DNA of 61,967 nt, the filler included, from Stramenopiles sp. TOSAG23-6 (taxonomy: Eukaryota), in the NCBI GenBank assembly GCA_900128565.1. It is 21 parts of 21 records of this genome, joined end to end, with 100 filler letters (N's around TTAATTAATTAA, not from the genome) between each part and the next. Parts side by side here need not be neighbours in the genome. Positions count along the whole stretch, not along the records: positions 38,515 to 41,364 come from LT637791.1; 20 more parts are not named here. The stretch is one strand, 5' to 3'. Under the pieces are notes generated by a model. It was not told the DNA's origin. It was given only the letters and a program-made list of their open reading frames with translations, and did no database searches. The translations under genes were made by a program, and so were the position numbers. This document shows positions 98 through 58,951 of the stretch, in pieces (position 1 is the first letter of the stretch; each line of letters starts with the position of its first letter).

Positions 98-2870
98 AAT
101 AATGGTGATAATAATAATAATGATGATGATAATAATGATGATGATGACGCAAATGATGACGTCATATTTTACGATGTACATCATTATTTTGACATGGAAA
201 AAAGACCAAAAAAATCGAATTCAAATACAAATATACCTATGAATCTTTCAGCAACTGACGCTTGTACGATTTCTTTTTCATCATGCATTTTTTTAACTTT
301 TTTTAACTTTTTTTTTAATTTTTTTTTTAATTTTTCATCATGCATTTTTTTAAATTTTTTTTAAATTTTTTTTTAATTTTTTTTAATTTTTTTTTAATTT
401 TTTTTTTTAATTTTTTCTTTTTGTAAGTAATTATATTCCTAATATTTTTTTCAATTAAAAAAAACAAACTAAAAACACAATACAGGTATCAGTATTTCCG
501 TAAGCGTCGCTCTATGTATGTTTCATTTTTTTTTTTAATTTCGAATTTATTTTTTTTTTCGTACGAAATTTCGTACCTAACAATTTTTTTTAGATTTTTT
601 TCAAAAAATATTTTTCCAAAATATTTATTTTTTTTCGTACGAAATTTCGTACCTAACAATTTTTTTTAGATTTTTTTCAAAAAATATTTTTCCAAAATAT
701 TTATTTTTTTTCGTACGAAATTTCGTACCTAACAATTTTTTTTAGATTTTTTTCAAAAAATATTTTTCCAAAAAACATCGGAGCTTGAATCTCTCTTATC
801 AATTGGTTCAAAATTGTCAACAACATTTGGTCGTTCGACTTTAAAATGGAATCGAAAACAAAAAGAAATTGAGAAATTTGTTGGCACTGAAGGCGAAATT
901 TTAGCTATTGTAGCAAAAATGCTATCTAATATATTTTCGAATTTTTATTTTTTGTCAAATAATTTGACAAAATCTGAAAAAACATTAGGGTTAGGGTTAC
1001 TCGAAAAAAAGTCTTTACAGTACAATTTTGATCCTATGGATGACACAAACATAGAATCAAACACGAAATCCCGATATTCTGAAAAATCAAGACGATCAAA
1101 AGAATCAAAATCAAATATTGAAATACACGAAATACAAGAAAATTATAAAAAAATGACAAATAGTAGAATTTCAACAAAAGAAAATGATGAAATGGAATGG
1201 ACACCAAACCATGAAAATCAAGAACATCAAGAAAAAAAATGTATGTAATTTCAATTTCAAATTTTATTTTTTTGGTTTTTTTTTTGGTTTTTTTTTTGGT
1301 TTTTTTTTGGTTTTTATACAAAATTTTGTACTTTTACAAAAAAAAATTTTATACAAAATTTACAAATTGTTTTTTTGTTGTACATATCGTTTAACAATGC
1401 ATACGCGGCGCCAACTAAAAAGGTAGAGAGTATATTGTCTGCGAGGCGAAAAATGTTACCAAGATTGTTCGTTTTCATTATTTTTTTAATTTCGAAATTT
1501 TTTTTTTTTTTTTTGTAGTAAATTTTGTACCTAACCAAAAAAAAAAAAATTTAAATATTTTTTCACAATGTTTAATTCGGTTGACTTGTCGAACATTTTT
1601 GCATTCAATAACAGCAGCCACAACCCAAACATCAAAACAAGTATTTGTTGAGGATTGTGACGGTTCCATTTCTCAAAAATGGCCGCAGCGTGTTTGGATT
1701 GAATTAGTTGAATTACGACGTAAAATTGGGGTAAGTGATTTTTTTTTTTTTTCAAATTTTTTTTCATACGAAATTTCGTACCTAACGAAACAAAATCAAT
1801 TTTTTTTTTTTGACCTACATTTTTTTTTTTTTTTTATTTTTACCTACAGTTTTGTTTTGGGAAAAATTCGTACCTAATGATTTTTTTTGTATTTACTTTT
1901 GTTCTTCACAATACTTGATTGGTTTATCAACGATGAAACCAATGAAACAAAAAACACGGATCCAATTTTAAATTTGTCAAAAAGTAGATACACGAAAAAA
2001 GAGTTAAATTCTAGTAATAGAAATAAAACTTTAGGGTTAGGGTTTGAACAAAAACAAAACAAACAAAACAAACAAAACAAACAAAACAAACAAAACAAAC
2101 AAAAAAAGCATCAAATACGAAGTAGTGATTTGGCGTCATGTCATCGCTCTCTTCCACTTTTACGTGGTACAATGGAAAAATTTGATCTTGCAATAGTGAA
2201 ACTTGCTCACTCTCCAATATATATATGTTTTATTCTTTTGAAAATTTGAATTTTTTTTTTTTTGAAAATTTTGTACCTAACAATTTTTTTTTATAGAAAA
2301 ATTTTGAAATATTTTTCCAAAATACTTGAAGTTGGTACGAAAACGTCTTTCGATTCCTCTATGGATATGTCTGATAATGCCACGTGTGGGTTTTCAATAC
2401 GAGATGAAGAGGGTCGCTTACTTCGAGGTTCACCATGTACGTTTTTTTTTTTTTTTTCAATTTTTTAAATAAATTTTTTTTTCTTACGAAATTTTGTACC
2501 TAACGATTTTTTTNNNNNNNNNNNNNNNNNNNNNNNNNNNNNAATACATGCTGCTCGACTTTGAGTGGATTTTGGATCGCAAAAAAAGAAACTGAACTCA
2601 GTTTGTCTTGGTGGATATCAGGATGCAATACCAAATCACTTGAAAAAGAAGAAAAGTTTTTGAATCGAATTAGTAGTATAATGATGATGGGAAAATCAAA
2701 AATTGATAATCGGACATACGAATTGGTGTACCAGTGCATGTATGTTTTTTTATTTTTTTTATTTTTTTTTCGTATGAAATTTTGTACCTAACAAATTTTA
2801 CAAAAAAAAAATATTTTCCAAAAATTACATGGTTCTTTCTCCTGAAGTTTGGCATCGCCAATTGTATTCA
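38..2870 (+). CDS. Partial intron-rich hypothetical protein with poly-Asp/Asn tract; inferred introns 264-485, 516-778, 1241-1387, 1467-1573, 1731-1916, about 2223-2327, 2437-2549, 2740-2830
   Basis: Exons join in frame after removing family introns (..DACISISVSVALSELESLL..); no family recognised. Confidence 0.55.
46..160 (+). repeat. (GAT)n/(AAT)n coding microsatellite
   Basis: Direct inspection; encodes poly-D/N. Confidence 0.9.
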
Positions 2871-5778: not shown

Positions 5779-5937
5779 ATGTATTTTGGAAAAATATTTC
5801 AAAAAAAAATCTAAAAAAAATTGTTAGGTACAAAATTNNNNNNNNNNNNNNNNNNNNNNNNNNNNNNNNNNNNNNNNNNNNTTAATTAATTAANNNNNNN
5901 NNNNNNNNNNNNNNNNNNNNNNNNNNNNNNNNNNNNN

Positions 5938-6238: not shown

Positions 6239-6397
6239 TAAAAAAGAAAATTGACAAGAAATTAAGATACCCGGTACCCTTTTTTTTTTTGTTGGTTTTG
6301 TAACCGACATAGGTTTTACTTTTTTGACCGACTTTGGTTCTTCGAATTATTGTACTGTTCAAATTGATCACAAAACTATCGTACTGAATTCAATACA

Positions 6398-8694: not shown

Positions 8695-8902
8695 TATGTA
8701 TGTTTTTTTTATTAAAATAATAAAGCATGCACATGTACACATTCATCATTTTTTTTTTAAATGTATAGTAATTTAATTATACCTTGCATCACTTTCCTAT
8801 GANNNNNNNNNNNNNNNNNNNNNNNNNNNNNNNNNNNNNNNNNNNNTTAATTAATTAANNNNNNNNNNNNNNNNNNNNNNNNNNNNNNNNNNNNNNNNNN
8901 NN

Positions 8903-10676
8903 ATTTCAGAAGAATCTTATTCTTATATAGATTAAATTTTGAGATTGCAAAATTATCATCAAAAGTGGAACTCAACTTTTACACCTGCAACCTATATGGA
9001 AAGTGTATACACAAAAAAGGGTGCTTTAGATAAAATTTCAAACATTGATGATATACTTTCACGTTATCCTGGTCAGGAGCATATTGTTATCCGAGAAGTG
9101 ATGAAAAAATACAAGACTTTAAAAAGTGAGGTCTATCCCATCTTGATGCGGTATGTATGTTTTCATGATGAATTTCATTTTTTTTTCGTACCAAATTTCG
9201 TACCTAACGATTTTTTTTTGTGTGACATATTTTTTAATCAACAGGAAGATTCACCTGAAACGTTTCGTTCACTTGAAGCAAATTCTGTACCTCAACTAAT
9301 GTTGATATTACCAAATGGTCGGAAGAAAATTACTAATTTTAAACCAGATGTTGAGAAGATTTCAGAATTTGTCAAGAAACATTTAAAAATTGACGTTCCT
9401 CTGTTCGTTTTCATCATTCATTTTATTTTTTTTTGTAGTAAATTTTGTACCTAACAAAATTTTGAAATTTTTCAAAAATATTTTTTTACAATTTATTTCT
9501 CCTCGGTCTGATAGTTATTTACCATATACACTTTTATGTGCTATATTTTTAGGTTTTTTACCTCCTTATCTTAGTTCAATACGAAAAGTAGTGAATATTT
9601 TAACATCGAGATGGATGGTACGTTTTTACTACAATTGTTTTTTTTTCATAGAAAATTTTGTACCTAACAAATTTAAAAAAAAATATATATATTTTTTCAC
9701 AAAACATGTTATGGTTTTAGCATTGGGAGTTTTTTTTGTGTCATCAAGTGGTTCAATTTCGTGTATTTTACAAAAATCACCTCTTTTTACTATGCAGAGA
9801 AATGTTCGTTTTCATCATGAATTTCAAATGTATTGTTCAAATGTATTGTTCAAATATATTTTTCAATTTTTTTTATACGAAATTGTATACCTAACAAATT
9901 TCAAAAGGTAAAAAATATATTCCCAAAATACATGTATGTTTCCATTTCAATTTCGAATTTTTTTTTTTTTTTATAAAAATTTTGTACCTAACGAATTTCA
10001 AAAGGTAAAAAATATATTCCCAAAATACATATTCCTCATTTTGTATACCCAAACGGACAACAACAAACTCTAGGTGAAGGTTTGATTGTTGGTTCTATTT
10101 ATCTCAGTATCAGTTTTTGTATTGTGTACGTTTTCATCATTAATTTTAAAACGTTTTTTTTTTCATACGAAATTTTGTACCTAATGTTTTTTTTGGAAAT
10201 ATTTTTTCACAGTACATGTTGCTATATAAAGTCTCAGGTAGTCCAACAAAGGAAAGTTGTAACCCTAATCGTATAGTATCTAATACGGAAAATCCGTATC
10301 TAAATTCGACCCATATTTTATCTTGTTTGATGCCTTCAAATGAACAAAAGTTACAAAATTTAAAGGGATATAAATGGACATGGTGGGGTCGACCAGCATT
10401 AGAAATCATGATAGATGACCGTAGATCAAACAGCCCTAACCCTACATTTTTAGCTGATGTACATAAATTGTCATTTACATCTTGGAGACAGCAAGGATTT
10501 CGTGTGGGTGGAATGCAATGGCTACAATATTGTACGTTGTTTACTTTTTACTTTTTTTTTTTTTTTTGTAAAAATTCTTGTACCTAACGAATTTCAAACG
10601 TAAAACATATTTTCCCAAAATACATTTGCAACAGCTTTTCTATCGGGTTGTTTTGTCTTTTTATATTATAATTTAA
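8903..10676 (+). CDS. OST3/OST6 (MAGT1/TUSC3-like) oligosaccharyltransferase subunit, 5' partial; introns 9155-9244, 9403-9496, 9618-9707, 9804-10030, 10126-10217, 10532-10625
   Basis: Spliced product has FRSLEANSVPQL, a TM with SSSG..CIL.KSP, and QQQTLGEGLIVG, typical of OST3/6. Confidence 0.7.
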
Positions 10677-14022: not shown

Positions 14023-14677
14023 TTACACTTTATTGAATTTATCTACATGTGTACGCGAATTTACTAGACCATATCTAGAATTCTGGTGTATATTTCTTTT
14101 TGTCAAGCTTCGATCATGGCAAAACATATATCCCACTTGTTGGCGACATCTGGGATTAGAACAGTGAACATCTGCCATATCAAATGGACCTTGGGCAAGA
14201 TCTACTTCGTATGGTTCAGCAACTGTTATTGAACCTGGAACTAAAGAATTCATATAACACGCAGGTTCCGGAGGTTCATCATCCGGAGTATCGCTGAAAC
14301 TCCACCGTCTACCATAGCATAATATCTGATCAGTATAGCTCAATATAGACCTGCAACCACTGCATTTTATAGGAACACGAGTAACGTGTGGCTTTTGGGT
14401 CCTTGCATCTTTAATACGTACATATACTATGAAAAAATATTTCGAAAAAAAACTGTTAGGTACGAAATTTCGTACGAAAAAAAATTAAAAGTATTTCATG
14501 ATGAAAACGTACATAAATTTCACCAAGATAAGTTTGACCGATAAATACTTCTTCTTTTTCATCTTTGGGATCAACATATGTGAGGCTATTCGGATCTATC
14601 GATTTTTTATCTTTATCAATACTAGAAATTTTGTACAATTCACCTTGTTCTAAAGACCGTGAACGTTCTCTTCGTCG
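14023..14677 (-). CDS. Yippee/Mis18-like zinc-binding protein, 5' partial; intron 14422-14512
   Basis: IKCSGCRSIL and ADVHCSNPRCRQQVGY Cys pairs. Confidence 0.7.
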
Positions 14678-18104: not shown

Positions 18105-19053
18105 AAAATATTTTTCGACACATTACAGTTGTATTATATTGCAAAAGATATCAAAGATGAACATTTAGTACAATATACAGTCCAATCATTGAGTCGTCTC
18201 TTAGCCTCTGTTGGATTCGTTGTACATCCAATTGAATTTCATGACTCTCGTACGTTGATGCATCACGAATTTATAATTTATTTCCTTTTTTTTTTTTTTG
18301 AAAAAAATTTGTAAAAAATATTTTTTTTTTTTTTTTTAGTAAAAAAAATATAATTTTTCTAGTTGTTACATATGCACTAACACACTTCAAATTGTACATA
18401 AATACGATTTTACTATATATGTGGTTTATTGCATATGGAACACTGGAATAATATTAACGGTTCAATAAAACGGTCCGTCCGTTATGTACGATTTTATCAT
18501 GAATTTACCAATTTATTATTTTATTTTTTTATTTTTTTTTTTTTTTTTACAAAATTTCGTAGTGAATCATTTTCTTTTTAACACTTTTTTTTCGAAACAA
18601 AACAAATATTCTTTTACAATATATGATTCACGTGGCGCAATGTCTCTGATTATTGATGGTATAAAACCTTTACAACATCAATTGTATCAACAAAAAAATC
18701 AAAAATTATCAGATTTTTCTGATTTTTACCCTAACCCTAATGGTCAAATAATTAGACAACAAGATTTGCATAATATTGCACGAATATTTAAAACCCCACA
18801 AACTCCAATCACACTTGAGTATTTAACAATTATAGGTCAAATTATAGATAATAATAGAAGAAATTTACGAAATAAAAGAAAACAACTTCAAAACCCTAAC
18901 CCTAATGAAAACAGTATAAACCCTAACCCTAATGAAAATAGTATAACAAATGTACTACCAAATAATCCTCTGACTGTCACTACTTCAATGCCACAATGTA
19001 TACAAAATTTGGTAGCTAAAGATACATTGTTTTCAATCCAGTTGGATATCAGT
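17879..19053 (+). CDS. Unassigned exons separated by family introns; poorly assembled, possibly several genes
   Basis: Short open exons between homopolymer-rich introns; continuity uncertain. Confidence 0.35.
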
Positions 19054-20657: not shown

Positions 20658-20977
20658 AAANNNNNNNNNNNNNNNNNNNNNNNNNNNNNNNNNNNNNNNN
20701 NNNNTTAATTAATTAANNNNNNNNNNNNNNNNNNNNNNNNNNNNNNNNNNNNNNNNNNNNTTTTTCGTACGAAATTTTGTACCTAACAAATTTTTTTAGA
20801 TTTTTTTTTGAAATATTTTTTTACAAAACGTGTGTGTTTTTTTTCTATCATTGTTGTTTTAACCCATTGTTTTTTTAATTTCTCTACACGTGTTGTACCA
20901 TTTTTTTTAATGTAAACAATCGAAAGTGTCGTACCTAACATTGTATTTTTTCTAAAAAATATGTTTTTACAGTATAG

Positions 20978-22579
20978 TCAATCATCGGTTCTCTTGTGGC
21001 TGTTGGCTGGGCAGCAAAAGGATTTCGTTCTCTTGGCTGGGAAGCTCTAGGTGAAGTTGGTATATCATGGATTGTATCTCCTTTGGTGGGTATGATTTTT
21101 GCAGGTGTTATGTTTATAATCATTGAACAATCAACAATGCATAGTCGATATCATACAAAAGGTGAAGTAGGAAAGAGATCGAAACAAATGCAACCTATTT
21201 TTATGACTTTTACAATATCGATGTGCATTGCATTCATTTTAGTAGCTGGTCCAAAACCTATTGCTATAAAAACAAAATGGCTTGCGATTCTGATATCTGT
21301 TGGAATTGGGTCTGTTATTACAATTGCATCAATGTGTTTATCACGAAAAAAGGAAAAACAAAATTCTTTAGATGAAAATCTCTTTATTTTAAAACATTCA
21401 GAAGAAGAAGGAGGAGGAGGAGTGGATAAGAGGTCAATTTCTAATAATTTTAGACGACAACAAAGATCTCAAAGAACGGGAAATTTTCTTGGTTCCGCCA
21501 AACTTCATTTATTTCATTCTGATGGAGATGATGATGATATTGAATGTGGAATTAATACTGGAAGTAATCTTGATTCACTTTTAGGTGAATTACCACATGA
21601 AAAAATTCAACTGCCTGGTTTTCTAGATGCTTCGGAAGTCTCTGAAGAAAATGTATGTTTTTATCTTTCATTTTATTTTAATTTTTTCTAATTTATTATT
21701 TTTTCATACGAAATTTCGTACCTAACGATTTTTTTTATTATCCAAAAAAAAAAAAAAAATATTTTTTCCAATACAGGATGAGCCATCCTCGACTGTTAGT
21801 GTTCAAACAAAACAACGTTCAATAGCAAAACAAGAATCAAAGACAGGATTGTCACATGCAACAGAATACTCTGGTGATGAAAACCGTACAGCAAAGGATG
21901 AAAAACTCCGTGCACGTGTTGCTGCTGAAGCTCCTTTTGTCCCATTATTGGCCATTTCAGCGCTAAGTGTTGCTTTTGCACATGGTGGCAATGATGTTGG
22001 AAATTCAGTAGGTCCTCTTTGTGCTATATTGGATATTTATAATAACAGAAATAATAGTGGTAGTTTTAAGATTAATTCTACTCCTGAAATTGAAACATGT
22101 ACGTTTTTCATCATGAATTTCATTTTTTTTGTAAAAACAATTTTTTTTCATAGTAAATTTTGTACCTAACAAATTTTTTACTAAAAACATTTTTTTTTCA
22201 CAATACATGGGCGTTAGCTTTAGGTGCAATAGGTTTTGTTATTGGAATTATTTTTCTTGGCAGTCGAACTATCGATACAGTTGGGAATCGGATTACGAAA
22301 TTAACTCCTTCTCGTTCCTATGCGACTCAAATGGGTGCTGCTGTTGCCGTTTTGGGATCTTCTGTTTTTGGTTACCCGGTATCTACTTCACATTGCCTTG
22401 TTGGTGCTGTAGTCGGTGTTGGACTGGCCAGCAAATGTTGTGGTATGACACAGTCTTCTACTTCACTCAATTTTAAAATTTTACAGAAAATTGTAGTAGG
22501 CTGGGTGGTGACGATACCTCTTGCTATGCTTTGTGCAAGTATTGTCTTTATACCTGTTCAAAAGCTACTAGGATATTAA
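20978..22579 (+). CDS. PiT/PHO4-family phosphate transporter, 5' partial; introns 21653-21776 (GT-AG) and 22099-22208 (GT-AT)
   Basis: AFAHGGNDVGNSVGP and PVSTSHCLVGAVVGVG signatures. Confidence 0.95.
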
Positions 22580-35560: not shown

Positions 35561-36384
35561 CCATAGAACCGACAGTGAGAAAATCTCGACTATGATCTTG
35601 TCCGAAATTATCTCGAAGGTCATAAACTTCTCTAGATGTGAAACCAGTTGATGATACTACGGCACCCCAATCCCCTATTGCAGGTAGTAAAATCTCCAAC
35701 ATTTTCTCACGAGTGAGTTCTGGGGAAATCGCAGAGTCGACAGGGAAAAACTCAACAGGATTCTCAGATTTATACGTTTCAAAGGTATTTTTTTTGACAA
35801 GTAAAGCAAAGGGACCACTTCGACGTCTAATGGTTTCAACTGCATTTTCAACAACTCGCGTTGCTCCTTCAGAAAAATCAGGCAAGACTTCAAATGGGAC
35901 ATTCATAGACGCGAGCATAGCGGGAGTAAGCTTGCCTTGAGTAATATGTTGGGGCTCATCACGTTTTCCAGGTTCTCCGCGCCAACCTATGACAAGTAAC
36001 ATTGGAATGGAGTACACAGTTGGATCAGCAAGAGATAATAACGGATTTACCGTATTACCAAGACCCGAATTTTGTAAATAAACTAGAGGAATTTTACCTG
36101 TAGCAGCATGATACCCGGATGCAATGCCAACTGCAGCACCCTCATTTGAACAAATGACATGTTCTTCTCTGCTTGTGTTATCACTGACGTAAGCGTTAAA
36201 ATTTTTTAACAGACTATCTGGGACACCAGCGTAAAATCCAATCCCATTATTTTTAAGTGTATTAAAAAGATCAGAAGGTTTGAGAAAATCTTGTTCTAAC
36301 TCCGTCAGGGGGCCAGCTGCTAAGGAAGATAGCCCACGGGATTGAACTACATGACGTGATGTAACATTAAGAGCAGACTTGATT
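35561..36384 (-). CDS. Phosphonopyruvate decarboxylase (ThDP-dependent); start unresolved, 3' truncated
   Basis: FYAGVPDSLLK, NEGAAVGIASGYH, YLQNSGLGNTVNPLLSL, IGWRGEPGKRDEPQH, DFLTVGSM. Confidence 0.93.
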
Positions 36385-36587
36385 CTAAAGTGGTCGTCAA
36401 GTCTTTTTAGCTTAGGTACAAAATTTCGTACGTTTTTTTTATTAGAGTTAGGGTGTCACGTCCTATGTCAGGCAGATTTGCTACCTTTTTTTTTTTGGAA
36501 AGAGAAACTTGTTCACATTGCGCGGATTAACTTTATGACTTCTCAATAAATTATTTTTCTAGTACGAGATATTCTAAAGTTGTACCA

Positions 36588-37541
36588 ATGTCGTCTTTTC
36601 TGGCTAGAAGAGCATTATCTACTGCGGCAAATGCTGTATCACGAAATGCTATCCCCTGTGCTACAACTCGCTTAGGGTCTTTGCGAAAGTTGATGGCATC
36701 GAAGGATGTTGTGCGGGTACTTGAGTGCCACAATGGTCTTTGCGCTTTAATCGCTGAGCACGCAAGAGGAAACGATGGAAGTTCTTTTGATGCAATGTGG
36801 AGCTCTAGCTTAACTGGATCTGCATCGAAAGGTAAACCAGATATTGAAACTGTATCAACTTCAGAGAGACTTGATCTTGCATCTGATGCTCTGGAGGTAT
36901 CAACTAAGCCTTTAATTTATGATGGCGATACTGGAGGTCACCCGGAAGTGTTTCACTTTACAGTTCGCAGCCTTGAGCGTCTTGGTGTTTCCGCATGCAT
37001 TATTGAGGATAAGACTGGTTTGAAGCAAAACTCTCTCTTTGGCACCGATCGTAAGCAAGAGCTCATTGATATCGATGAATTTTGTGATAAAATTCGAGCT
37101 GGCCAAAGCGCGAAGTCTGACCAGGATTTTATGATAATTGCCAGACTTGAAGCTCTTATTGCTGGACATGGCGAAGAGGAAGCACTAAAGCGCGCTAAGG
37201 CATATATTGACGCAGGCTGTGATGCTATCATGATACACTCAAAACAAAAATCCCCAGATGAAGTTTTGTCTTTTCTCAAGAACTATAATAAACTTGAGAA
37301 GACCGTTCCTGTTGTGGCCGTTCCTACGACGTATAATTCTATTACTGAAGACGAGCTCTCTAAATATGGTGTAAAAATTTGCATTTATGCAAATCACATG
37401 CTTCGTGCTGCTTATCCTTCTATGTTGAGTGTTGCTGAATCAATTTTGTCCAACAAGAGATCTCAAGAAGCTGACGAAGACTTATTACCTGTGAAAGAAA
37501 TTATCACATTAATTGATGATAACACCGGAATGAAAATGTAA
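36588..37541 (+). CDS. pepM: Phosphoenolpyruvate phosphomutase with putative mitochondrial presequence
   Basis: IEDKTGLKQNSL (EDK-X5-NS motif), IIARLEALI, IYANHMLRA. Confidence 0.95.
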   Translation: MSSFLARRALSTAANAVSRNAIPCATTRLGSLRKLMASKDVVRVLECHNGLCALIAEHARGNDGSSFDAMWSSSLTGSASKGKPDIETVSTSERLDLASDALEVSTKPLIYDGDTGGHPEVFHFTVRSLERLGVSACIIEDKTGLKQNSLFGTDRKQELIDIDEFCDKIRAGQSAKSDQDFMIIARLEALIAGHGEEEALKRAKAYIDAGCDAIMIHSKQKSPDEVLSFLKNYNKLEKTVPVVAVPTTYNSITEDELSKYGVKICIYANHMLRAAYPSMLSVAESILSNKRSQEADEDLLPVKEIITLIDDNTGMKM

Positions 37542-38606: not shown

Positions 38607-40835
38607 CTACACAATTTCGTTCCATGCGATATTTGTAATTCTGAGATTGTCGTAAATGAGCAGGTAGTAGATATTCTGCCATTATTTTTGGATTTTTTAC
38701 AATACGTAAAATACCTCCTATAATACGTTGTAATGCATTTGAAATACAAATTCGATTTTTAATTAACCCTAACCCTCTATTTGATTGGGAGAATTTTTTT
38801 TTTTGATTTGAGATTGAATTACTTGTTGTATTCGTTGTATTCGTTGTACTACTACTACTACTACTACTACTATTTGTTTGATGTCCTTTCAATGATGATA
38901 ATAACATAACACATTGGAGTAATTTAGAAATTGGTTCACGAAAGCGAAACGATCCATTTTTTTTTTTATATTCTACTGTTGTTTTCTTACCCTTATTATT
39001 AGGGTTAGGGTTAGTATTTTGATTATTTTGTGATTTCTGCATCAAAATATTATAATTACGTAGAGTAGTTTGAAATTCCTCAAAGCAGCGCTCGATTCGT
39101 AATTCTAAAAATGAGCAATTTTGATTTGTTGCATTGTTTTTGTTTTGTGCCGTAAGAGGAATTCGAACGTCACATGTATTTTGAAAAAATATTTCAAAAA
39201 AAATCTACAAAAAATTGTTAGGTACGAAATTTCGTATGAAAAAAAATAAATATTTTGGAAAAATATTTCAAAAAAAATCTAAAAAAAATTGTTAGGTACA
39301 AAATTTCCTATGAAAAAAAAAATGAAAAAAAAAAATGAAAAAAAATAAAACATACGCACCTCAACAAAATAACGGCACAATCTTTCCAATAGAAAATCAC
39401 CAAATTGAACTAAAGTTGAACAGTCATTTTCATAATTATGATTTTTTTGTACATTATATACATTGATTTCGTGTTTATACTCGATTTCGTGTTTATGTTC
39501 CATCACTATTGATACTAAATTGTCATATAAAAAATAACGCAGAGAGGACGAAAAACCAAGGGCTAATTTTAAACAATTTAAAGCTTCAAATTGGAGATCG
39601 TGATGAGATTGGCTCTTTGGAGATAGAATAAGACAAAACCCAGCAATGGCCATTTTTCTATGATTTGTTTTTTTAGCCATAAGTTTTTTTCGTAAAAAAA
39701 TCATGTGTGGTGAAAAAATAATTTAAAAAAAAAAATTTTTGGTTAGGTACAAAATTTCGTATGAAAAAAAAAAAAAAAAAAAAAATTAAATTCCGAAATT
39801 GAAATGAATCATAAAAACAAACATTAAAGCTGAACTAAAAGTAACGCTTATACCAATCAATGGTCGGAGACATCGCAATAAACTAATGACAGCATCATAA
39901 CGAAATGTTTGCACATAATCTAACCATTCTGCAGTAATTGCTGCAAATATTGTACAACAATATTTCAAAAAAAAAAAAAATTTAAATTTTCAAAAAATTT
40001 TCAAAAAAATTTCAAAAAAAAAAAAAATAAATTGTATAAAAAAAAAAAAATAAATGAAATTCATAATGAAAACAAACATGTTCCATTAAATACTGCAAAG
40101 TATCAGATGAATTACAAATACAACTAATTAATTCAAAATAATAAAATAAAACAGTTTTTGATGTAGAATTGAGATGTAATTCATTTGATTCGTCATCTTC
40201 ACAATCCTTTACAACTGAATGCTCAGATATAGACTGAAATAACATGTATTGAAAAAAAATATTTGAAAAATTTGATTTTTTTTGTTTTTTTTTGTTTTTT
40301 TGTTAGGTACAAAATTTCGTATTAAAAAAAAAATAAATTCGAAATTGAAAAAAAATATTTTAAAAATTTGATTTTTTTTGTTAGGTACAAAAGTTTGTAT
40401 TAAAAAAAAAATAAATTCGAAATTGAAAAAAAATAAAACGTACATGCGCAACATTTCACTTCGTACTGATGCAGTTGCATGAAATAAAGTAAATAATATT
40501 TTTATTGCTGTGGATGGTTTCAAAAGTGTTATATCTGAATTCTTTAGGGTTAGGGTTTCTTCGCATGTATTACAACATACAGTATATATTGTGAAAAAAT
40601 TTTGAAATTTTTTTTTTTTACCGAAAAAAATATTTTTTTGTTAGGTACAAAATTTCGTATGAAAAAAATTTAAATTTCAAAAAAAAAAAAAAAAACTTGA
40701 AAACGTACAAGAAGTGATGCGGCAGCTTCAAGACCACCACACGAAATAATCTTTTTTGCCACAATCTCAATGTCACTATACTGTTTTAAAAAATTAGGTT
40801 TTCGTCGCATATCGTGATGATTATTATGATGAGTG

Positions 40836-40868: not shown

Positions 40869-41310
40869 GGATTAGGGTTAGGGTTAGAAATTTGTATATC
40901 ATTTTCAACATTAGGGTTAGGGTTAGGATTATTTTGTTTTGTACTCAATTCTGTACCTAACGTTTTTTTTTCTTTTGTAGAGTAGCGTAGTAAATGTTTG
41001 GAATAAACCAAAACAAATTCCACAACTGTTTGTCGTTTTCTTCTTGCTCGTGAATCGGCAACACTCATATGATGGGAAAAAATATTTTTTTTGTATAATT
41101 TGTTAGGTACGAAATTTCGTACGAAAAAAAACATAAAATTTTTTTTGAAAAAAAAAAAAAAAAAAAAACTAAAATTTGTTAGGTTCAAAATTTCGTATAA
41201 AAAAGAAAAAAATTGAAATTCATGATGAAAACGTACATAGGTGACTCGTCAGCAGCACATTTGGCAAGAAGAGCAATAACAGCATATTGCCACGTAATGC
41301 TATGGCACTC
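38607..41310 (-). CDS. FANCI: FANCI-like DNA repair protein, internal part; introns 41067-41236, 40584-40708, 40244-40443, 39945-40077, 39703-39822, 39174-39355
   Basis: EWLDY..LLRCLRPLIGIS..LMIFLRKKLM..RKMAIAGFCLIL..FEALNCLKLAL..LRYFLYDNL resembles the FANCI solenoid. Confidence 0.7.
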
Positions 41311-41464: not shown

Positions 41465-41470
41465 ACCAGT

Positions 41471-41518
<48 letters not shown>
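41465..41518 (-). tRNA. tRNA-Phe(GAA), 3' truncated by contig end
   Basis: GCCGCGATAGCTCAGTTGGGAGAGCGTCAGACTGAAGATCTGAAGGTCACTGGT. Confidence 0.92.
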
Positions 41519-41759
41519 AAGGATTAGTGTGCAGAACCGTCACCTTTGTCAAATATAAACACCTATGACACTACAATACAAAGAAAAAAAACATTTGAAA
41601 AAAAAATCAAATTTTTTTTAGATTAGGGTTAGGGTCTCAAACTCAAAATTGGCAGTTGAAATAACGAATAAATCCATTTGGAATTATAGTCAGTCAACAT
41701 TGTGACGACGAAAAAAAAATGTTTTTACTCCAACACAAAATAGTCCTCGGAGGCAATAA

Positions 41760-42950
41760 ATGCTTCCAGCAAAAACAATACTCAACGCAGCAGTTACAGT
41801 AGTGTCTAATCCTTTGCCTGGTGTACGTTTGGCTTCAAATATGGCAAAAGAGTGCCGTCGCGTAAAGTCTCAAGAACAAGACGAAGTCTCAAAAAGTTCA
41901 GTTCATTCAATAGTACCCTCACATCTTTCAGCACAACTTTCATCACAAATTTCAAGTTCAGTTTCAACTTCAGTTTCACCTTCAATTTTAAATTCAGTAG
42001 TACCTTCGCTTCCTGGTGTAACTGTAGAATCGATGGATCCATGTATCCTCCCTGATACTTTCCGTATGATGAATTCTTTAGAAAATAGAAAATCAGCTTG
42101 TATAGCATTCCAAAAACGTGGTTTTATATCTATTGATCAGTTAGTTGAACCTACTTTTGCGGAGGAGCTTAATGTTCGCCTTGAGCGTGTTTTGAGAGGT
42201 GAATATGATACTGGAATTACCCCTGACAAAATACCGAAGCGAATAAAACCTGGTAATAATGGTGTCTTGGGTTTCAGTGGTAATCCTATCAAAAGGACTC
42301 TCCAAATCATCAACATTTGGAAGAGTGACTCAACATTTGCAAAATTAGTATTATCACCAACCCTTGGCCAAATAGTAGCGACACTTGGTGGATGGAAATA
42401 TGGGGCGCGAATTGCACAAGATCAAGTTTGGGCTAAACCACCAGGTGCTAGTTCCCTTGTGTTTCATAGAGATTCTCCTTACTTTGATTTCTGTCCAAAT
42501 GACGTCATTACAGTTTGGATTGCACTTGACGATATGACACAAAAACCAAGTATTGGACCTTTGGAATATGCAGTAGGTAGTCATTTATGGGGTGATGGTC
42601 GCTCTGGTTCCGCAAATCAATTTTTTCAGGACGAACGTCGTCGTCTTTTAGACTCTGCTGCATTACTGGAAGGAATTGATCCAGATGATGTTGAAATTGT
42701 TACAGTGAAAGTTTGTAAAGGTGGTTGTAGCATTCATAATGGTAAAACGTGGCACGGAAGTGGTCCAAATACATCTTCAAAGTTTCCACGTAGAGGTCTT
42801 GGAATCCACTTTATCCCAGCAAATGCAGAATTTAAAGAAATCAAGCAAGGTGAAAGACCTCTTGGTAAATTGTGGCTTTCTCACAAATCAACTGATAGTA
42901 ATTCTCTACCCTCTGATGTATTCCCCATTACTTTTAGTAGTAAGAAGTAA
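41760..42950 (+). CDS. Phytanoyl-CoA dioxygenase (PhyH) family 2OG-Fe(II) oxygenase
   Basis: DQVWAKPP..FHRD..TVWIALDD..TWHGSGPN..RRGL. Confidence 0.9.
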   Translation: MLPAKTILNAAVTVVSNPLPGVRLASNMAKECRRVKSQEQDEVSKSSVHSIVPSHLSAQLSSQISSSVSTSVSPSILNSVVPSLPGVTVESMDPCILPDTFRMMNSLENRKSACIAFQKRGFISIDQLVEPTFAEELNVRLERVLRGEYDTGITPDKIPKRIKPGNNGVLGFSGNPIKRTLQIINIWKSDSTFAKLVLSPTLGQIVATLGGWKYGARIAQDQVWAKPPGASSLVFHRDSPYFDFCPNDVITVWIALDDMTQKPSIGPLEYAVGSHLWGDGRSGSANQFFQDERRRLLDSAALLEGIDPDDVEIVTVKVCKGGCSIHNGKTWHGSGPNTSSKFPRRGLGIHFIPANAEFKEIKQGERPLGKLWLSHKSTDSNSLPSDVFPITFSSKK

Positions 42951-43367
42951 TACATGCTGAAGTTATTAATATATTAAAAAAAATATCAATAGTGAAAAAA
43001 TATGAATAGTAATCATCAACCAACTTTGTTCAAAAGTATTTATTCGAAATTCCTATTTTTGGGAAATAGTAATATGCAGCGCACGAAATCTAAATCGGAA
43101 ATATCCGACACAAATCACAATTTGAAAATAGTAGCAAAAAAGGTAGTAAATTACTATTACTATTAGTTATTTTTATGACTCTACTACTTATTTAAAGTTA
43201 AAGACTTAAAGTATTACGCAGACTGGTACTAGGTGTACTAGTAAATAGTAGTAGTAGTACTAGCCCTATACAGTTACTTACTTCTTCTAAGTTCAAAGCC
43301 TGGTAGATAGAATCGATTTGAGATTAAGGTTAGGTATTAATAACTTTACTATTCTGATTGCTGTAAA

Positions 43368-44313
43368 ATGATGGGTTCCAAGAAGAATGACAAGTTTAAC
43401 GACGCAGAATATCGGCGATTTGTGAAAGAAAAGAAATTAATGGTAAAGAAGTTACCAGAGGTTCGCAAAAGTGCGAGTAGCTTTTTTCTTCAGCTTGGAA
43501 TTACTTGTACAGCAGCACAGGAATTTACAGAAACACTTGGACAATTCACAGTTGATTCGTTTGATCTTAATCGTAATACTCTTTCAAGACTCTGTAAAGC
43601 TCAGAAAGCTACAGGCAATATTGGACATGATTTTGCTTGGACTAAGCAAATGACCTCTCCAGCTAGAGAGTTTCTGAACGTGTTACCAGAACGTATTCGG
43701 GACGTGGAAAATAATATTTCAGAGCGTCGGAAATCTCTGATTGCTTTACATTCTCTTGGTGTTCAGTTGGGAAAAGCGAAAGAGAAAGCGCGAAAAACTC
43801 GTTCCAAGGCTTTGAAGAAAGGGACATTTCTTACAAGCAGTAAGAAACGTCAAGCAGCTGCATTGAAAGCTAAAGAGTCGTTAGAGAATTGCAAGCAAGT
43901 GTATGCAAATTTGGAAAAGCTCGTCGAAGAATCAACCCACAAACTCAATCAAACTGTTGATAGATTACAGGCTGACCAAGCTATTATGCTTCGAAAAGAA
44001 CTCAATGCACTTGCTACTGTCCAACTCTCCATTGCAAAAGAAACAGTAGACATAATGAAAAATGTTTTAGAGAAGCAAGATGATGAACTTGATGTAGCAA
44101 ATGTGTTTTTAGATAGACGACCTGAGAGAAGAAGACTATCCATAGAAATGAGCGTGACGGATAGTTCTCAATTGAGTGATGAAGGGTATGAGAAAAAATG
44201 TTCTAAAGATGAAAATGTACTACAAAAAAACAGAAAAAACGATGATGAAAACCCACAGAGTGCTGAAAACAACGAGAGTACTACNACNANTNAGACTGAT
44301 GATTTTCTTACAC
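43368..44313 (+). CDS. Coiled-coil, BAR-domain-like protein, 3' partial
   Basis: Long helical ORF; BAR assignment tentative. Confidence 0.55.
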
Positions 44314-44413: not shown

Positions 44414-44419
44414 ACCAGT

Positions 44420-44467
<48 letters not shown>
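44414..44467 (-). tRNA. tRNA-Phe(GAA), partial, duplicate-contig copy
   Basis: Same sequence as 41465-41518. Confidence 0.9.
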
Positions 44468-44708
44468 AAGGATTAGTGTGCAGAACCGTCACCTTTGTCA
44501 AATATAAACACCTATGACACTACAATACAAAGAAAAAAAACATTTGAAAAAAAAATCAAATTTTTTTTAGATTAGGGTTAGGGTCTCAAACTCAAAATTG
44601 GCAGTTGAAATAACGAATAAATCCATTTGGAATTATAGTCAGTCAACATTGTGACGACGAAAAAAAAATGTTTTTACTCCAACACAAAATAGTCCTCGGA
44701 GGCAATAA

Positions 44709-45899
44709 ATGCTTCCAGCAAAAACAATACTCAACGCAGCAGTTACAGTAGTGTCTAATCCTTTGCCTGGTGTACGTTTGGCTTCAAATATGGCAAAAGA
44801 GTGCCGTCGCGTAAAGTCTCAAGAACAAGACGAAGTCTCAAAAAGTTCAGTTCATTCAATAGTACCCTCACATCTTTCAGCACAACTTTCATCACAAATT
44901 TCAAGTTCAGTTTCAACTTCAGTTTCANCTTCAATTTTAAATTCAGTAGTACCTTCGCTTCCTGGTGTAACTGTAGAATCGATGGATCCATGTATCCTCC
45001 CTGATACTTTCCGTATGATGAATTCTTTAGAAAATAGAAAATCAGCTTGTATAGCATTCCAAAAACGTGGTTTTATATCTATTGATCAGTTAGTTGAACC
45101 TACTTTTGCGGAGGAGCTTAATGTTCGCCTTGAGCGTGTTTTGAGAGGTGAATATGATACTGGAATTACCCCTGACAAAATACCGAAGCGAATAAAACCT
45201 GGTAATAATGGTGTCTTGGGTTTCAGTGGTAATCCTATCAAAAGGACTCTCCAAATCATCAACATTTGGAAGAGTGACTCAACATTTGCAAAATTAGTAT
45301 TATCACCAACCCTTGGCCAAATAGTAGCGACACTTGGTGGATGGAAATATGGGGCGCGAATTGCACAAGATCAAGTTTGGGCTAAACCACCAGGTGCTAG
45401 TTCCCTTGTGTTTCATAGAGATTCTCCTTACTTTGATTTCTGTCCAAATGACGTCATTACAGTTTGGATTGCACTTGACGATATGACACAAAAACCAAGT
45501 ATTGGACCTTTGGAATATGCAGTAGGTAGTCATTTATGGGGTGATGGTCGCTCTGGTTCCGCAAATCAATTTTTTCAGGACGAACGTCGTCGTCTTTTAG
45601 ACTCTGCTGCATTACTGGAAGGAATTGATCCAGATGATGTTGAAATTGTTACAGTGAAAGTTTGTAAAGGTGGTTGTAGCATTCATAATGGTAAAACGTG
45701 GCACGGAAGTGGTCCAAATACATCTTCAAAGTTTCCACGTAGAGGTCTTGGAATCCACTTTATCCCAGCAAATGCAGAATTTAAAGAAATCAAGCAAGGT
45801 GAAAGACCTCTTGGTAAATTGTGGCTTTCTCACAAATCAACTGATAGTAATTCTCTACCCTCTGATGTATTCCCCATTACTTTTAGTAGTAAGAAGTAA
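44709..45899 (+). CDS. PhyH-family dioxygenase, duplicate-contig copy
   Basis: Same as 41760-42950. Confidence 0.88.
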   Translation: MLPAKTILNAAVTVVSNPLPGVRLASNMAKECRRVKSQEQDEVSKSSVHSIVPSHLSAQLSSQISSSVSTSVSXSILNSVVPSLPGVTVESMDPCILPDTFRMMNSLENRKSACIAFQKRGFISIDQLVEPTFAEELNVRLERVLRGEYDTGITPDKIPKRIKPGNNGVLGFSGNPIKRTLQIINIWKSDSTFAKLVLSPTLGQIVATLGGWKYGARIAQDQVWAKPPGASSLVFHRDSPYFDFCPNDVITVWIALDDMTQKPSIGPLEYAVGSHLWGDGRSGSANQFFQDERRRLLDSAALLEGIDPDDVEIVTVKVCKGGCSIHNGKTWHGSGPNTSSKFPRRGLGIHFIPANAEFKEIKQGERPLGKLWLSHKSTDSNSLPSDVFPITFSSKK

Positions 45900-46316
45900 T
45901 ACATGCTGAAGTTATTAATATATTAAAAAAAATATCAATAGTGAAAAAATATGAATAGTAATCATCAACCAACTTTGTTCAAAAGTATTTATTCGAAATT
46001 CCTATTTTTGGGAAATAGTAATATGCAGCGCACGAAATCTAAATCGGAAATATCCGACACAAATCACAATTTGAAAATAGTAGCAAAAAAGGTAGTAAAT
46101 TACTATTACTATTAGTTATTTTTATGACTCTACTACTTATTTAAAGTTAAAGACTTAAAGTATTACGCAGACTGGTACTAGGTGTACTAGTAAATAGTAG
46201 TAGTAGTACTAGCCCTATACAGTTACTTACTTCTTCTAAGTTCAAAGCCTGGTAGATAGAATCGATTTGAGATTAAGGTTAGGTATTAATAACTTTACTA
46301 TTCTGATTGCTGTAAA

Positions 46317-47262
46317 ATGATGGGTTCCAAGAAGAATGACAAGTTTAACGACGCAGAATATCGGCGATTTGTGAAAGAAAAGAAATTAATGGTAAAGAAG
46401 TTACCAGAGGTTCGCAAAAGTGCGAGTAGCTTTTTTCTTCAGCTTGGAATTACTTGTACAGCAGCACAGGAATTTACAGAAACACTTGGACAATTCACAG
46501 TTGATTCGTTTGATCTTAATCGTAATACTCTTTCAAGACTCTGTAAAGCTCAGAAAGCTACAGGCAATATTGGACATGATTTTGCTTGGACTAAGCAAAT
46601 GACCTCTCCAGCTAGAGAGTTTCTGAACGTGTTACCAGAACGTATTCGGGACGTGGAAAATAATATTTCAGAGCGTCGGAAATCTCTGATTGCTTTACAT
46701 TCTCTTGGTGTTCAGTTGGGAAAAGCGAAAGAGAAAGCGCGAAAAACTCGTTCCAAGGCTTTGAAGAAAGGGACATTTCTTACAAGCAGTAAGAAACGTC
46801 AAGCAGCTGCATTGAAAGCTAAAGAGTCGTTAGAGAATTGCAAGCAAGTGTATGCAAATTTGGAAAAGCTCGTCGAAGAATCAACCCACAAACTCAATCA
46901 AACTGTTGATAGATTACAGGCTGACCAAGCTATTATGCTTCGAAAAGAACTCAATGCACTTGCTACTGTCCAACTCTCCATTGCAAAAGAAACAGTAGAC
47001 ATAATGAAAAATGTTTTAGAGAAGCAAGATGATGAACTTGATGTAGCAAATGTGTTTTTAGATAGACGACCTGAGAGAAGAAGACTATCCATAGAAATGA
47101 GCGTGACGGATAGTTCTCAATTGAGTGATGAAGGGTATGAGAAAAAATGTTCTAAAGATGAAAATGTACTACAAAAAAACAGAAAAAACGATGATGAAAA
47201 CCCACAGAGTGCTGAAAACAACGAGAGTACTACNACNANTNAGACTGATGATTTTCTTACAC
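46317..47262 (+). CDS. Coiled-coil/BAR-like protein, duplicate-contig copy
   Basis: Same as 43368-44313. Confidence 0.55.
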
Positions 47263-51671: not shown

Positions 51672-52502
51672 ATGGGCGATGAATCACGAAATCGTGCATT
51701 TGGTATTATAAATGCTGTATGTGGTAGTCTGTTGACTGCCATTGGGTATGGTTTACAAAAAGTTACGCTGAATAAACTTGACAATGCATTTGGTCCTGAA
51801 CTATCCAACCCAAATCGACCAAACGTTCTTACTTTACCATTATACATATGTGCTCTAGTTTTACTCTTTTTAGGTGCAATCTCAGCTGCAGCAAACCTTG
51901 GAATCCTTGGTCAAGCAGCTGGTTCAGCTTTTTCTGGTATTGCTTTAGTATTTAATCAATTTTTAGGATGGTGGTGGCTTCAGGAGAAATATACATTTTG
52001 GCATGGCATTAGTGCTATTTTTATTGTTACAGGACTTATTTTATCTGTTTCATTTGCAGATATGAAACAACAAAAGTTTACTATAGATCAAATGCTTGAT
52101 ATGTATATACAACCATGGAAAATTGTATTTACAGTTATCATTCTTGGTATAGCTACATCAAGTCATAAACAATTAATACGTGTATTTTTTTTTTCGTACC
52201 AAAGTTTGTACCTAACAACAAAAACTATTTTTTTTTGAAATTTTTTTTTGAATTTTTTTTTCGTACGAAAATTTGTACCTAACAAAAAAAAATATTTTTT
52301 TTTGAGAAATATTTAATATTTTTCCAAAATATATCAAACAAATATAAAAGTATCAAGAAAAATTTTAATACATATTTCGACTGTTGCGGGTATAGCTAGT
52401 GCATTTTCTGCTCTATCTACAAAAACAGTACTTGAAGTACTCAAATCTGATATTTCTGAAAAATTAGCCCCAAATACAACAAAAGGATTTAAACAATTAC
52501 CT
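51672..52502 (+). CDS. NIPA-family (DMT) Mg transporter N-terminal half; intron 52182-52334
   Basis: GSLLTAIGYGLQK, ALVFNQFLGWWWLQEK, SAFSALSTKTVLEVLK. Confidence 0.75.
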
Positions 52503-53125: not shown

Positions 53126-53782
53126 GGTTTCCTAAAAAATTAAAAAAAAAAAAAAAANNNNNNNNNNNNNNNNNNNNNNNNNNNNNNNNNNNNNNNNNNN
53201 NTTAATTAATTAANNNNNNNNNNNNNNNNNNNNNNNNNNNNNNNNNNNNNNNNNNNNTTTTGTACCTAACAATTTTTTTTAGATTTTTTTTGAAATATTT
53301 TTCCAAAATACATCTTGGATTTGATTTTGATTATGATGTAAGTGAATTTGATATTTCTTTTAGCTGCCTTGAAGGTGTGACAGAGGGTGCAGATGAAGAT
53401 GCGCTTGACGATAATATTACAAAGAAAAAAATACACTAATTTAATTTTAAGTGTAATCAACTTATTTTTCATTCAAGAAAAGTACGTTTTACAATTTTTA
53501 AAATTTGTTTTTGTAGTCAATTTTGTACCTAACAAATTTTTGAAATATTTTTGTACAATACACATATTTTATTTGAGAAAAAAGTCGTCGATTTTGTTGT
53601 CTGCTACTATTAAAAATCATTCACAGATGAATACACAATATGAAACATTTATTCACTGTACATCGAATTTTGCCACTGACAAATCGAAATATCATAAGAA
53701 AGGCTGCGTGTTTAGTGGTGTATAAAAAAAATACGAATAAAAGGTGTTTCTGATTAAGTTTTCAATTTCTTAAGAATTAATT

Positions 53783-57157: not shown

Positions 57158-57616
57158 TTCGGTATCTAGTACAATTTGAATACTACTTTTGGTATGTATA
57201 TCTACCCTTCTAGTAGTAGTACCTGTTTTACTACTCTCGAGTCACTCTGTACTTTTTATGATGGATATTTCTAGTTTTTTTGGTAGGGAATTTCGTACCT
57301 AAAGCAAAAAAAAACAACCTTTTTGTTTACGTTGCTGTTTTTTGGTTTTTTTGTAACTGCAGATTCAAAAAAAGATGGTCAAAAAAAAAAAAAAAATCAA
57401 TGTCGTTACAATTTTGATATCATATCTACAGTATACAGTCAACTAGTCTATATACGAAAGCACTATCGAACGCATAGTATACATATAATTGTATATATAG
57501 TATAAAGATATATTGATACTACGTGTCGCAGCATATATTATTTGATTTTCGGAATTTCATACTAAAAAAATACAAAAAAAAACAAAAGAGTATTTGATAA
57601 ATAAAAGACAATCAAA

Positions 57617-58951
57617 ATGAGTCAAAAACAATCAAAATCGACCGAAACAAAACCAAATGGAGCAAAGCTTTCTCTCGTCCACACATTTGGAGTGTCTGGA
57701 CCATCACAAGACAACGTGACCTTTGTGAGCAAATCTGTGATTGCCTATCCAATAGGTCGACAGATTGTTTTTCATGATATCAAAACAGGTGACATGATTT
57801 TCAGAAAACGAAGCAAGAATTTTCCTAAAGTGACATCAATGTCAATCGACTCCACTCTATCTCATATTGCTATCTGTGAAGGAGGTATTGACGCCAAGAC
57901 AAGTATTTCAATTTTCAATATACAAACACAAAACCGTGTAAAAAAATTGTCACCTTTGAAAGGGCAAGGAGATATCTCGACGTGTTGCTTTTCAATATCT
58001 GGTAAAAAACTAATTACAGTAGGAATTGACAAAATGACAGAAAAAACAGATGGTACTACACCTAATTCGAATCGAAAGGAGGGACCTACATTTATCGTTA
58101 ATTCGTGGCAATGGCCTGTAGCTAAAGTGACGTCATTGTGTTCAGGCACAGGAAATATTTCACGAATTCGAATCCATCCAAAGGATGTCAAACAATTCAC
58201 GACTTCAGGTCCAAAACATTTACGGATTTGTATGTTTTATTTTTTTATTTTTTTTACCGAAAAAAAAAAAAAAAAAATTCAATTTTTTTTTTTTTTTTAT
58301 AGTACATTTTGTACCTAACGAATTTTTTTTTATAGAATTTTTTAGATTTTTTGAAATATTTTTCCAAAATACATGGACATTAGGTATTACATCGGCAGCA
58401 CCAACGAAGCAATTACCTCTTATAAAACCATTACAGTCTGAGAGAAGTGGAAATTTTGCAGATCATTGTATGTTTTATATGAATTTCTAATTTAATTTTT
58501 TTTTTTTTGGTTTTTTTTTCGTAAAAAAATTTCGTACCTAACAAATTTTTTTAGATTTTTTTTTGAAATATTTCTTCACAATACGTTTTAGTACGAAGAG
58601 GATTTTGTAAACCTATTGAAAAAGTAAAAACTTTAGCCAAAGAAGGTGTAGATAGCATTATTATTATAGATGATCAATTATTTTCATCCAAGAATCAAAA
58701 TCAAAAAAATCAAAGATCTAGAAAGATGCAGAATGATGTACTTTTTCATAAATGTTTTTTTCATATTTTTTTTCATACGAAATTTTGTACCTAACAAAAT
58801 TTTAATTTTTTTTTACTACATTTTTTTTTTACAATACATGATGGTTTGGAACAACTTCTTCTTAGTTCTTTGGATTCTACAAAAGAAGTGGAAAATATTG
58901 GTATTTTTTCAATGCCTTTTGCAGATGGTTTATTTTTACAAACAATTGCAT
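57617..58951 (+). CDS. CFAP57: CFAP57/WDR65-like flagellar WD40 protein, 3' partial; introns 58230-58374, 58468-about 58591, 58738-58839
   Basis: HTFGVSG..DNVTF..IAYPIGRQIV, CCFSISGKKL, SGPKHLRI|W. Confidence 0.7.

Follow-up and report, generated by a model that had tools for sequence, protein, structure and literature searches.

Background

Almost all introns removed by the major (U2-type) spliceosome end in AG, and their last two bases are read in the catalytic centre during the second step of splicing. Introner elements are transposon-derived spliceosomal introns found in Micromonas, Aureococcus, dinoflagellates and others. We describe here a repeated, introner-like intron family, most copies of which end in AT, in a stretch of 61,967 nucleotides (nt) from Stramenopiles sp. 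TOSAG23-6 (assembly GCA_900128565.1), hereafter called the window. Particular attention is given to one intron of a putative FANCI homologue, which an earlier, sequence-only reading had drawn with a TT end. A young repeated family that ends mostly in AT is a natural experiment on how strictly the terminal dinucleotide is read, and on the creation of splice sites by mobile introns. Seven introns bear on whether an A is required at the penultimate position (-2): four end in TT, one ends in ACGT, and two carry an AG five bases ahead of the usual end (AG(-5)). Should the TT ends be used, choice of the 3' site depends little on the dinucleotide, an outcome that specialists would not expect; otherwise these are decayed GT..AT introners, rescued by a nearby AT or AG and drifting back towards canonical GT-AG.

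The family is like introners in its many near-identical copies of about 100 nt within coding exons of unrelated genes, in bringing its own donor and branch signals, in the duplicated-looking AT at its borders (30 of 45 copies), in the contig breaks that fall within the repeat and in its tandem multi-unit copies. It is unlike them at the 3' end: introners are reportedly removed at GT...AG, often borrowing the AG or the GT from the target duplication, whereas here 37 of 45 copies end in AT and 3 in AG. Transposition of the family is putative.

Other systems offer partial parallels. Fritillaria borealis reportedly has non-canonical U2-type introns with diverse borders (AG/AC, AG/AT and others) that do not derive from one repeated element. 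The likeness lies in the handling of many non-GT/AG introns by the major spliceosome; the difference is that a single family with a single border type is found here. According to Padgett and colleagues, the 3' site of U12-type introns is said to be chosen mainly by its distance from the branch point, several dinucleotides being tolerated. Such introns are a known precedent for a positional acceptor, but the donor motif, branch distance and abundance seen here do not fit them. Amoebophrya is said to follow different border rules, with inverted-repeat ends. Invasive elements in introns, and introns with non-canonical borders, have been described from this organism (Farhat et al. 2021, PMC7789003). 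The likeness consists of a marine protist host, repeated intronic elements and non-GT/AG borders genome-wide; the lineage is another one, and the present family has kept a GT donor and a yeast-like branch box, only its last base being off canon. In euglenid nonconventional introns, cut sites are set by a structure that joins the intron ends and not by conserved dinucleotides (PMC6221363), another conceivable way of cutting by position. Unlike those, the present introns have a strongly conserved donor and branch consensus, and show no covariation in cis and no consistent end helix. The literature searched held no introners with GT-AT borders and no description of GT..AT introns for uncultured marine stramenopiles; term look-ups in two single-cell stramenopile genome papers (PMC5778133, PMC3998028) gave no such introns in the sections that they reached.

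A repeated family of GT...AT introns

The branch-like box TA(C/T)CTAA(C/T) has 84 matches in the window, divided between the plus (52) and minus (32) strands. The 45 introns having both ends on one contig were retained as a curated set, to which the counts below refer. Their length ranges from 84 to 263 nt (median 107). All but one start with GT, as GTATGT (18 copies), GTACGT (14), GTTTGT (4), GTTCGT (3) or other hexamers (1 each), and a second GT lies four bases in, in every family member (GTAY^GTTTT; carets mark cuts or unit borders). CTAAY, located 33 to 59 nt ahead of the last base, is carried by 43 copies; the flagged FANCI copy is one of two exceptions. The last four letters are ACAT (26), ATAT (9), ACAG (3), ACTT (2), or GTTT, ATTT, TTAT, AAAT and ACGT (1 each), which makes 37 copies ending in AT, 3 in AG, 4 in TT and 1 in GT. 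All the AT, AG and TT ends quoted in the sequence-only reading were found in place, namely those at 39945, 1573, 1916 and 2327, and ACAG^ at 485, 9244 and 21776. The AG-ended copies are simple T-to-G variants of one base position:

264..485, plus strand: AG-ended copy, tail CACAATACAG^; flanking exon of only 30 nt, frame from the chain translation alone
9155..9244, plus strand: AG-ended copy, tail AATCAACAG^; clear flanking frames
21653..21776, plus strand: AG-ended copy in the PHO4 phosphate-transporter gene, tail CCAATACAG^; clear flanking frames

Host genes include RCC1, PHO4, ankyrin, aminotransferase and the FANCI homologue, so that near-identical copies lie in unrelated protein-coding genes, as is characteristic of introners. 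With regard to U2-type introns, a GT donor with a hexamer complementary to U1 and U6 and an upstream branch consensus are both present, but a 3' AG is seen in just 3 of the 45 copies. The upstream exon ends in AT in 30 of the 45 copies, against a background of 9.6%. As AT is its own reverse complement, its presence at the end of both exon and intron blurs any reading as a target-site duplication.

We give about an even chance to the following account. An ordinary major-type spliceosome would remove the family at GT...AT, through an extended acceptor A-(C/T)-A-(T/G)^ whose last two letters are read. The 3' cut would fall at the element's own last base, with the A at -2 and the T or G at -1 being inspected, and would not be set by a ruler counting from a box. 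Where the terminal AT has been lost (ACGT, ACTT, GTTT, ATTT), productive splicing would most likely shift to the nearest AT or AG that keeps the frame. The flagged intron would then be an old, decayed copy of a mobile-looking family of about 100 nt, GTA(C/T)GTTTT ... TACCTAAC ... CCAAAATACAT^, its rescue pair being a canonical GTTTTC...TTTGCAG, four bases in at both ends. In spliceosome structures the -1 base contacts the G at donor position +1, and the A at -2 contacts the branch adenosine. Given these contacts, a G-to-U change at -1 would be tolerated more easily than loss of the A at -2. We infer that an A at -2 is required in this family.

Some introns contain two or three tandem units (516-778; 9804-10030; 39174-39355 and 40244-40443, both on the minus strand; 52209-52335). 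The first has three branch boxes, and in the second one full unit follows another head to tail across a ...ACAT^GTATGT junction; the frame demands that these arrays be removed whole, as single introns. At 20761-20990 (plus strand), a tail ending in TACAAAACGT is followed directly by a diverged second unit (GTGTGTTTTTTTTC ... TACCTAAC ... TTTTTACAG^). It is a second ACGT-ended copy, with AG at the end of the composite intron, and its donor lies off the contig.

Reading frames and RNA evidence for removal

Frames were called as the longest stop-free frame on each side, limited by neighbouring introns, and were considered clear when, on each side, the best frame reached 60 nt or more and exceeded the runner-up by a factor of 1.5 or more. 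Of the 27 clear-frame copies, 26 are in frame when cut at the last base of the element (binomial P = 7e-12, tested against 1/3), a result that does not discriminate between acceptor models, because alternatives at +3, or at +4 with the donor also moved by +4, keep the frame automatically. The first-pass count was 24/27, and became 26/27 after two donor revisions (1242 to 1241; 15145 to 15134, a homologous GTACAT). Chain translations are open across contig 1, contig 2, the contig of the FANCI homologue and the contig containing 58468. For contig 1, one frame stays open when the introns of the sequence-only reading are removed, save two that were left in at that step.

Of the words sampled from window positions 1-10000, 12 to 16% occur in each of three polyA metatranscriptomes; independent DNA metagenomes were also found. 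Mapping of RNA and DNA contigs covered contig 1 (1-2870), which carries three of the four TT introns. One junction was seen in RNA:

2740..2830, plus strand: GT..AT copy, the sole junction seen in RNA; tail CCAAAAATTACAT

RNA contig X8 record 23 (248 letters, no mismatches) matches 2645-2733 and 2828-2870, with 3 letters of its own between them. Three letters thus stand in place of 94 genomic ones, and the 91 nt missing on balance equal the predicted intron in length. The upstream exon ends in GTGCAT and the intron in ACAT; the three letters plus CAT fit the GT..AT product, the register being ambiguous within CAT. We infer that the alignment breaks at 2733 through repeat masking by the tool. 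Removal from mRNA is therefore seen at the RNA level for this copy, and for the others through the frames (26/27) and one homologue alignment (below). No RNA contig mapped to contig 1 extends over the TT introns 1467-1573, 1731-1916 and 2223-2327. Two RNA contigs of the contig-1 gene are unspliced, one over 1319-1468 and one over 2543-2625, which begins in an intron tail. Unspliced repeat copies from other loci are abundant in polyA contigs (529 records in X7, mostly on 538-601, 649-753 and 2276-2325), reflecting either frequent intron retention or DNA in the libraries.

Two further sources gave no additional cases. When public metagenomes were scanned for tails that differ at the -2 base, 117 loci were retrieved; a branch box lies upstream in 0/117, so all are chance matches. 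Protein word-index searches for spliced relatives found nothing with the exons 1917-2222 (among near-length proteins), 40078-40242 and 57605-58228 (among longer ones).

The GT..AT borders could in principle be displaced. A shift to |ATGT...AC|AT, written with bars at the cuts, would yield an identical mRNA wherever the upstream exon ends in AT (30 of 45 copies), and the RNA junction at 2740-2830 is ambiguous in register; moreover, TACCTAAC appears to resemble the U12 branch consensus. That the family is spliced at AT...AC, or by the minor (U12-type) spliceosome, nonetheless appears very improbable to us. Fifteen of 45 copies have no AT ahead of the GT, whereas 44 of 45 start with GT in the GT..AT register; no donor hexamer (0/45) begins (A/G)TATCC, the start of the U12 donor motif (A/G)TATCCTT; and the branch-to-end distance is 33 to 59 nt, against roughly 10 to 20 nt for U12-type introns.

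Position of the 3' cut relative to the box

The sequence-only reading had aligned the terminal decamer as (C/T)A(C/A)AAT plus 4 nt, and proposed that the cut is measured from this CAAAAT/CACAAT box without the dinucleotide being read. The decamer describes 28 of the 45 copies; the strict box is missing in 16 (in one of them through Ns), and in 1 it is displaced and predicts the wrong cut. Eight clear-frame copies that lack the strict box are still in frame at the usual end, for example CACCACACAT^, TTCAATACAT^ and CATAATACAT^. In two copies the box is displaced while the cut stays after ACAT: the tail of the RNA-supported 2740-2830 exceeds the consensus by two bases, and in 53482-53565 the box is likewise farther from the cut, these displacements amounting to 1 to 2 nt. 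The second of these copies, and a copy with a perfect box, are as follows:

53482..53565, plus strand: displaced-box copy, ends TACAATACACAT; in-frame cut 6, not 4, nt past the box
58468..58586, plus strand: ACGT-ended copy with a perfect CACAAT box; box+4 out of frame, in-frame ends at 58582 (AT) and 58591 (AG)

For this last intron, a translation over four exons contains 5 stops with the cut at box+4, and 0 stops when the cut follows either AT(-4) or AG(+5) (TTTTAG^). The next exon would start with ACGTTTTAG after AT(-4), or with TACGAAG after AG(+5). Together with the copies in which the box is misplaced or absent, and with the alternatives available to the TT copies (below), this runs counter to measurement of the cut from the box.

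A second argument for a positional acceptor had been that an AG five bases upstream is skipped, on the ground that its use leads to early stops. It concerns two introns:

10126..10217, plus strand: GT..AT copy with AG(-5), CACAG^TACAT^; the AG keeps the frame when paired with the GT at +4 and loses it with the first GT
14422..14512, minus strand: GT..AT copy with AG(-5), CATAG^TATAT^; same geometry as 10126-10217

Paired with the first GT, AG(-5) does lead into stops after some 20 codons, leaving 63 and 57 nt open. The second GT always puts it in frame, because 4 + 5 = 9, and the three extra codons are stop-free in both introns; the frame alone is therefore no proof of skipping. Skipping is the likelier outcome in both, since the first GT is the family donor everywhere else.

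The dinucleotide alone cannot mark the site either. Two to six AT dinucleotides are bypassed between 12 nt past the branch and the cut in 42 of 42 copies, an upstream YA(T/G) is present in 37 of 42, and an upstream AG falls in the same interval in 7 of the 43 copies that have the CTAAY box. This part of the positional proposal holds, and AT, AG and TT all stand at the homologous base; its ruler is not supported.

The positional model as a whole fixes the cut 4 nt past the (C/T)A(C/A)AAT box, or in a looser form at the final base of the element, with the dinucleotide uninspected. We regard it as rather unlikely. In its favour, all four TT copies are in frame at the homologous base, the spacing in the FANCI gene fits its homologue, GTTTGT, the form of the first GT in the FANCI intron, serves as donor in other family members, and both the bypassed ATs and the stops that AG(-5) causes with the normal donor are as it would have them. 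Against it stand the box counter-examples above, the enrichment of TT copies for in-frame AT or AG alternatives (below) and the fact that being in frame at the homologous base does not discriminate. Nor was a structure capable of acting as a ruler found in fold and end-complementarity tests. The branch-to-end distance is not fixed (33 to 59 nt), and the region from branch to 3' end folds no better than shuffled sequences (mean z = -0.04, n = 42, with 1/42 below -2). The intron ends are complementary in register (+1 with -1) at a mean of 6.5 of 9 pairs counting G-U, yet cis pairs do not differ from permuted ones, that is, there is no covariation (P = 0.68 in the +i/-i register, 0.08 to 0.82 in others). 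A consistent end-to-end helix was not found, the ends being paired at all in 17 of 42 minimum-energy folds.

The FANCI-homologue intron and the other TT-ended copies

The flagged intron and its alternative, and the three other TT-ended copies, are as follows:

39945..40077, minus strand: flagged intron with the boundaries first drawn, 133 nt, GTTTGT...TACAATATTT (GT..TT); clear flanking frames, in frame
39941..40073, minus strand: alternative canonical reading, 133 nt, GTTTTC...TTTGCAG (GT..AG), both ends shifted by 4; stop-free, LMEHVSITAEW
1467..1573, plus strand: TT-ended copy, GTTCGT...CACAATGTTT^A; in-frame AT 3 nt downstream (GTTTAAT^)
1731..1916, plus strand: TT-ended copy, GTAAGT...CACAATACTT^G; in-frame AT 3 nt downstream (CTTGAT^)
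2223..2327, plus strand: AT..TT copy, ATATGT...CAAAATACTT^G; a +4/+4 shift gives the canonical GTTTTA...TTGAAG

On the minus strand the flagged intron, 40077 to 39945, starts with GTTTGTTTTCA, ends with TACAATATTT and is followed by GCAGCAATT. At greater length, the exon ends in TTAATGGAACAT, the intron runs from GTTTGTTTTCATTATGAATTTC to TTGTTGTACAATATTT, and the next exon starts with GCAGCAATTACTGCAGAATGG. Judged by its start and tail, it is clearly a decayed family copy, one that has lost the CTAAC branch box. In 2223-2327, both border dinucleotides are altered within one copy (ATATGT for GTATGT, ACTT for ACAT).

The host gene is named a FANCI homologue on the strength of a Pfam match below threshold and of its likeness to one protein. 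Single exons match FANCI_S2 at E = 0.01 (16.4 bits, cut-off 37.8). A HMMER search with the next exon as query returned 2 proteins from 1.84 billion representatives, the best being P0001 (43% identity over 74 residues, E = 2.9e-11), which itself carries FANCI_S2 at E = 2.9e-17 and aligns over four exons of the host gene. The spliced translation is ungapped against P0001 at three junctions, 40443-40244, 40077-39945 and 39822-39703, the outer two being of AT type; at the middle one, LMEH-AA-ITAEWLDY lies opposite MAEN-SS-QLIEWLGY. The LMEH^AAITAEWLDY spacing proposed earlier is thereby borne out, and 133 nt are removed. The alignment fits the TT and the canonical GT-AG readings equally, since both have the same length and place AA or VS opposite SS. 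A donor at +4 combined with the AT at -2 was disfavoured, as it requires an insertion of 2 residues relative to P0001. By our estimate, canonical splicing of this intron has a little under an even chance and the GT..TT of the first drawing a little over one in three, other outcomes taking up the rest.

Nothing in the frame compels the TT ends. An AT or AG that keeps the frame and lies within 4 nt, counted at +3 for an unchanged donor or at +4 when the donor also moves by +4, is available to 4 of 4 TT copies, compared to 8 of 40 controls ending in AT or AG (Fisher P = 0.0036, or 0.029 when the site set is widened); these categories were set after looking at the four copies, and with n = 4 the enrichment is thus a lead and not a test. 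Target duplication was considered as a source of the TT and set aside, because TT precedes the donor in only 1 of the 4 copies (1467-1573). Alternatively, the cut may be made at the end of the extended 3' motif with any letter tolerated at -2 and -1, the GT..TT introns (FANCI, 1467-1573, 1731-1916) being spliced as drawn. A CAG five bases upstream would then be passed over, and 3' choice by the major-type spliceosome would be independent of the terminal dinucleotide. We consider this doubtful; use of TT itself as a splice end ranges, from intron to intron, between unlikely and somewhat less so.

The post hoc choice of categories is the first of several points that weigh against a read dinucleotide with rescue of the decayed copies. 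Three AT-ended copies (7731, 12219 and 39822) use GTTTGT as donor and have the same second GT after it; should the choice of donor not depend on the acceptor, the FANCI intron would use its first GT as well. That donor leaves no in-frame AT or AG, the only ends in frame being TT at 0, CA at +3, +6 and -6, and TA at -3. Conservation is about equal over positions -16 to -1, as young repeats would show, so that the last two letters are not singled out. The exception at 58468 could in principle stem from a one-base assembly error in the flanking exon. The sites that the TT copies would use are placed by frame and motif in regions outside RNA coverage, the mapping having been made on contig 1, with three of the four copies. 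Finally, many copies in the RNA libraries are unspliced, and DNA may be present in them.

Another reading, which we think improbable, is that the TT ends arose as errors in the consensus or in the amplification behind a single-cell assembly, or mark introns that are retained or poorly spliced in decaying genes. Three of the four TT copies do lie in one 2.9-kilobase (kb) contig in which all introns are unusually diverged (GTTCGT, GTAAGT, ATATGT, and 1241-1387 with its branch box lost), the two unspliced RNA contigs come from that same contig (1319-1468, and 2543-2625 with its intron tail), and the FANCI copy has lost its CTAAC box. Contig 1 nevertheless keeps an open frame over all its exons, and the FANCI homologue over seven, in a genome that is AT-rich and prone to stops; this argues for genes that are intact and spliced. 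It is unlikely that A-to-T errors arose four times independently at one position of the element, and the independent DNA run X3 shows no differing letters, though its coverage of the TT sites is not demonstrable.

Other features of the window

The window consists of about 21 contigs of roughly 2.9 kb, sorted by falling length and joined by N44-TTAATTAATTAA-N44 linkers (2871-2970, 5838-5937 and onward), so that contigs adjacent in it are not genomic neighbours. It is AT-rich (GC content 0.22 to 0.38). Contigs often start or end inside the intron repeat, which indicates that the assembly breaks at the family. An Rfam scan of the window gave 0 matches, hence no small nuclear RNA, and is silent on the rest of the genome.

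The contigs 41465-44313 and 44414-47262 look near-identical: they have common PhyH-domain open reading frames (ORFs), and the sequence around 43336 equals that around 46285. This is probably assembly redundancy or a pair of alleles.

Telomere-like (TTAGGG)2 or (CCCTAA)2 dodecamers occur 13 times in the window, compared to 0 expected:

985-996, 2031-2042, 11306-11317, 11499-11510, 18729-18932 (3 sites), 38999-39010 and 40544-40555: telomere-like dodecamers
40872-40922 (2 sites), 41623-41634 and 44572-44583: remaining telomere-like dodecamers

The sites examined, which belong to contig 1 and the FANCI homologue, fall within ORFs and are read through in frame as LGLG or as NPNPN/TLTL. Telomeric short repeats are unusual inside coding exons.

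One contig free of the intron family carries two uninterrupted ORFs, one PEP-mutase-like (36531-37538, plus strand, E = 1.6e-55) and one with a TPP-enzyme N-terminal domain (35562-36455, minus strand). The pair could be phosphonate-pathway genes, or foreign DNA in the assembly.

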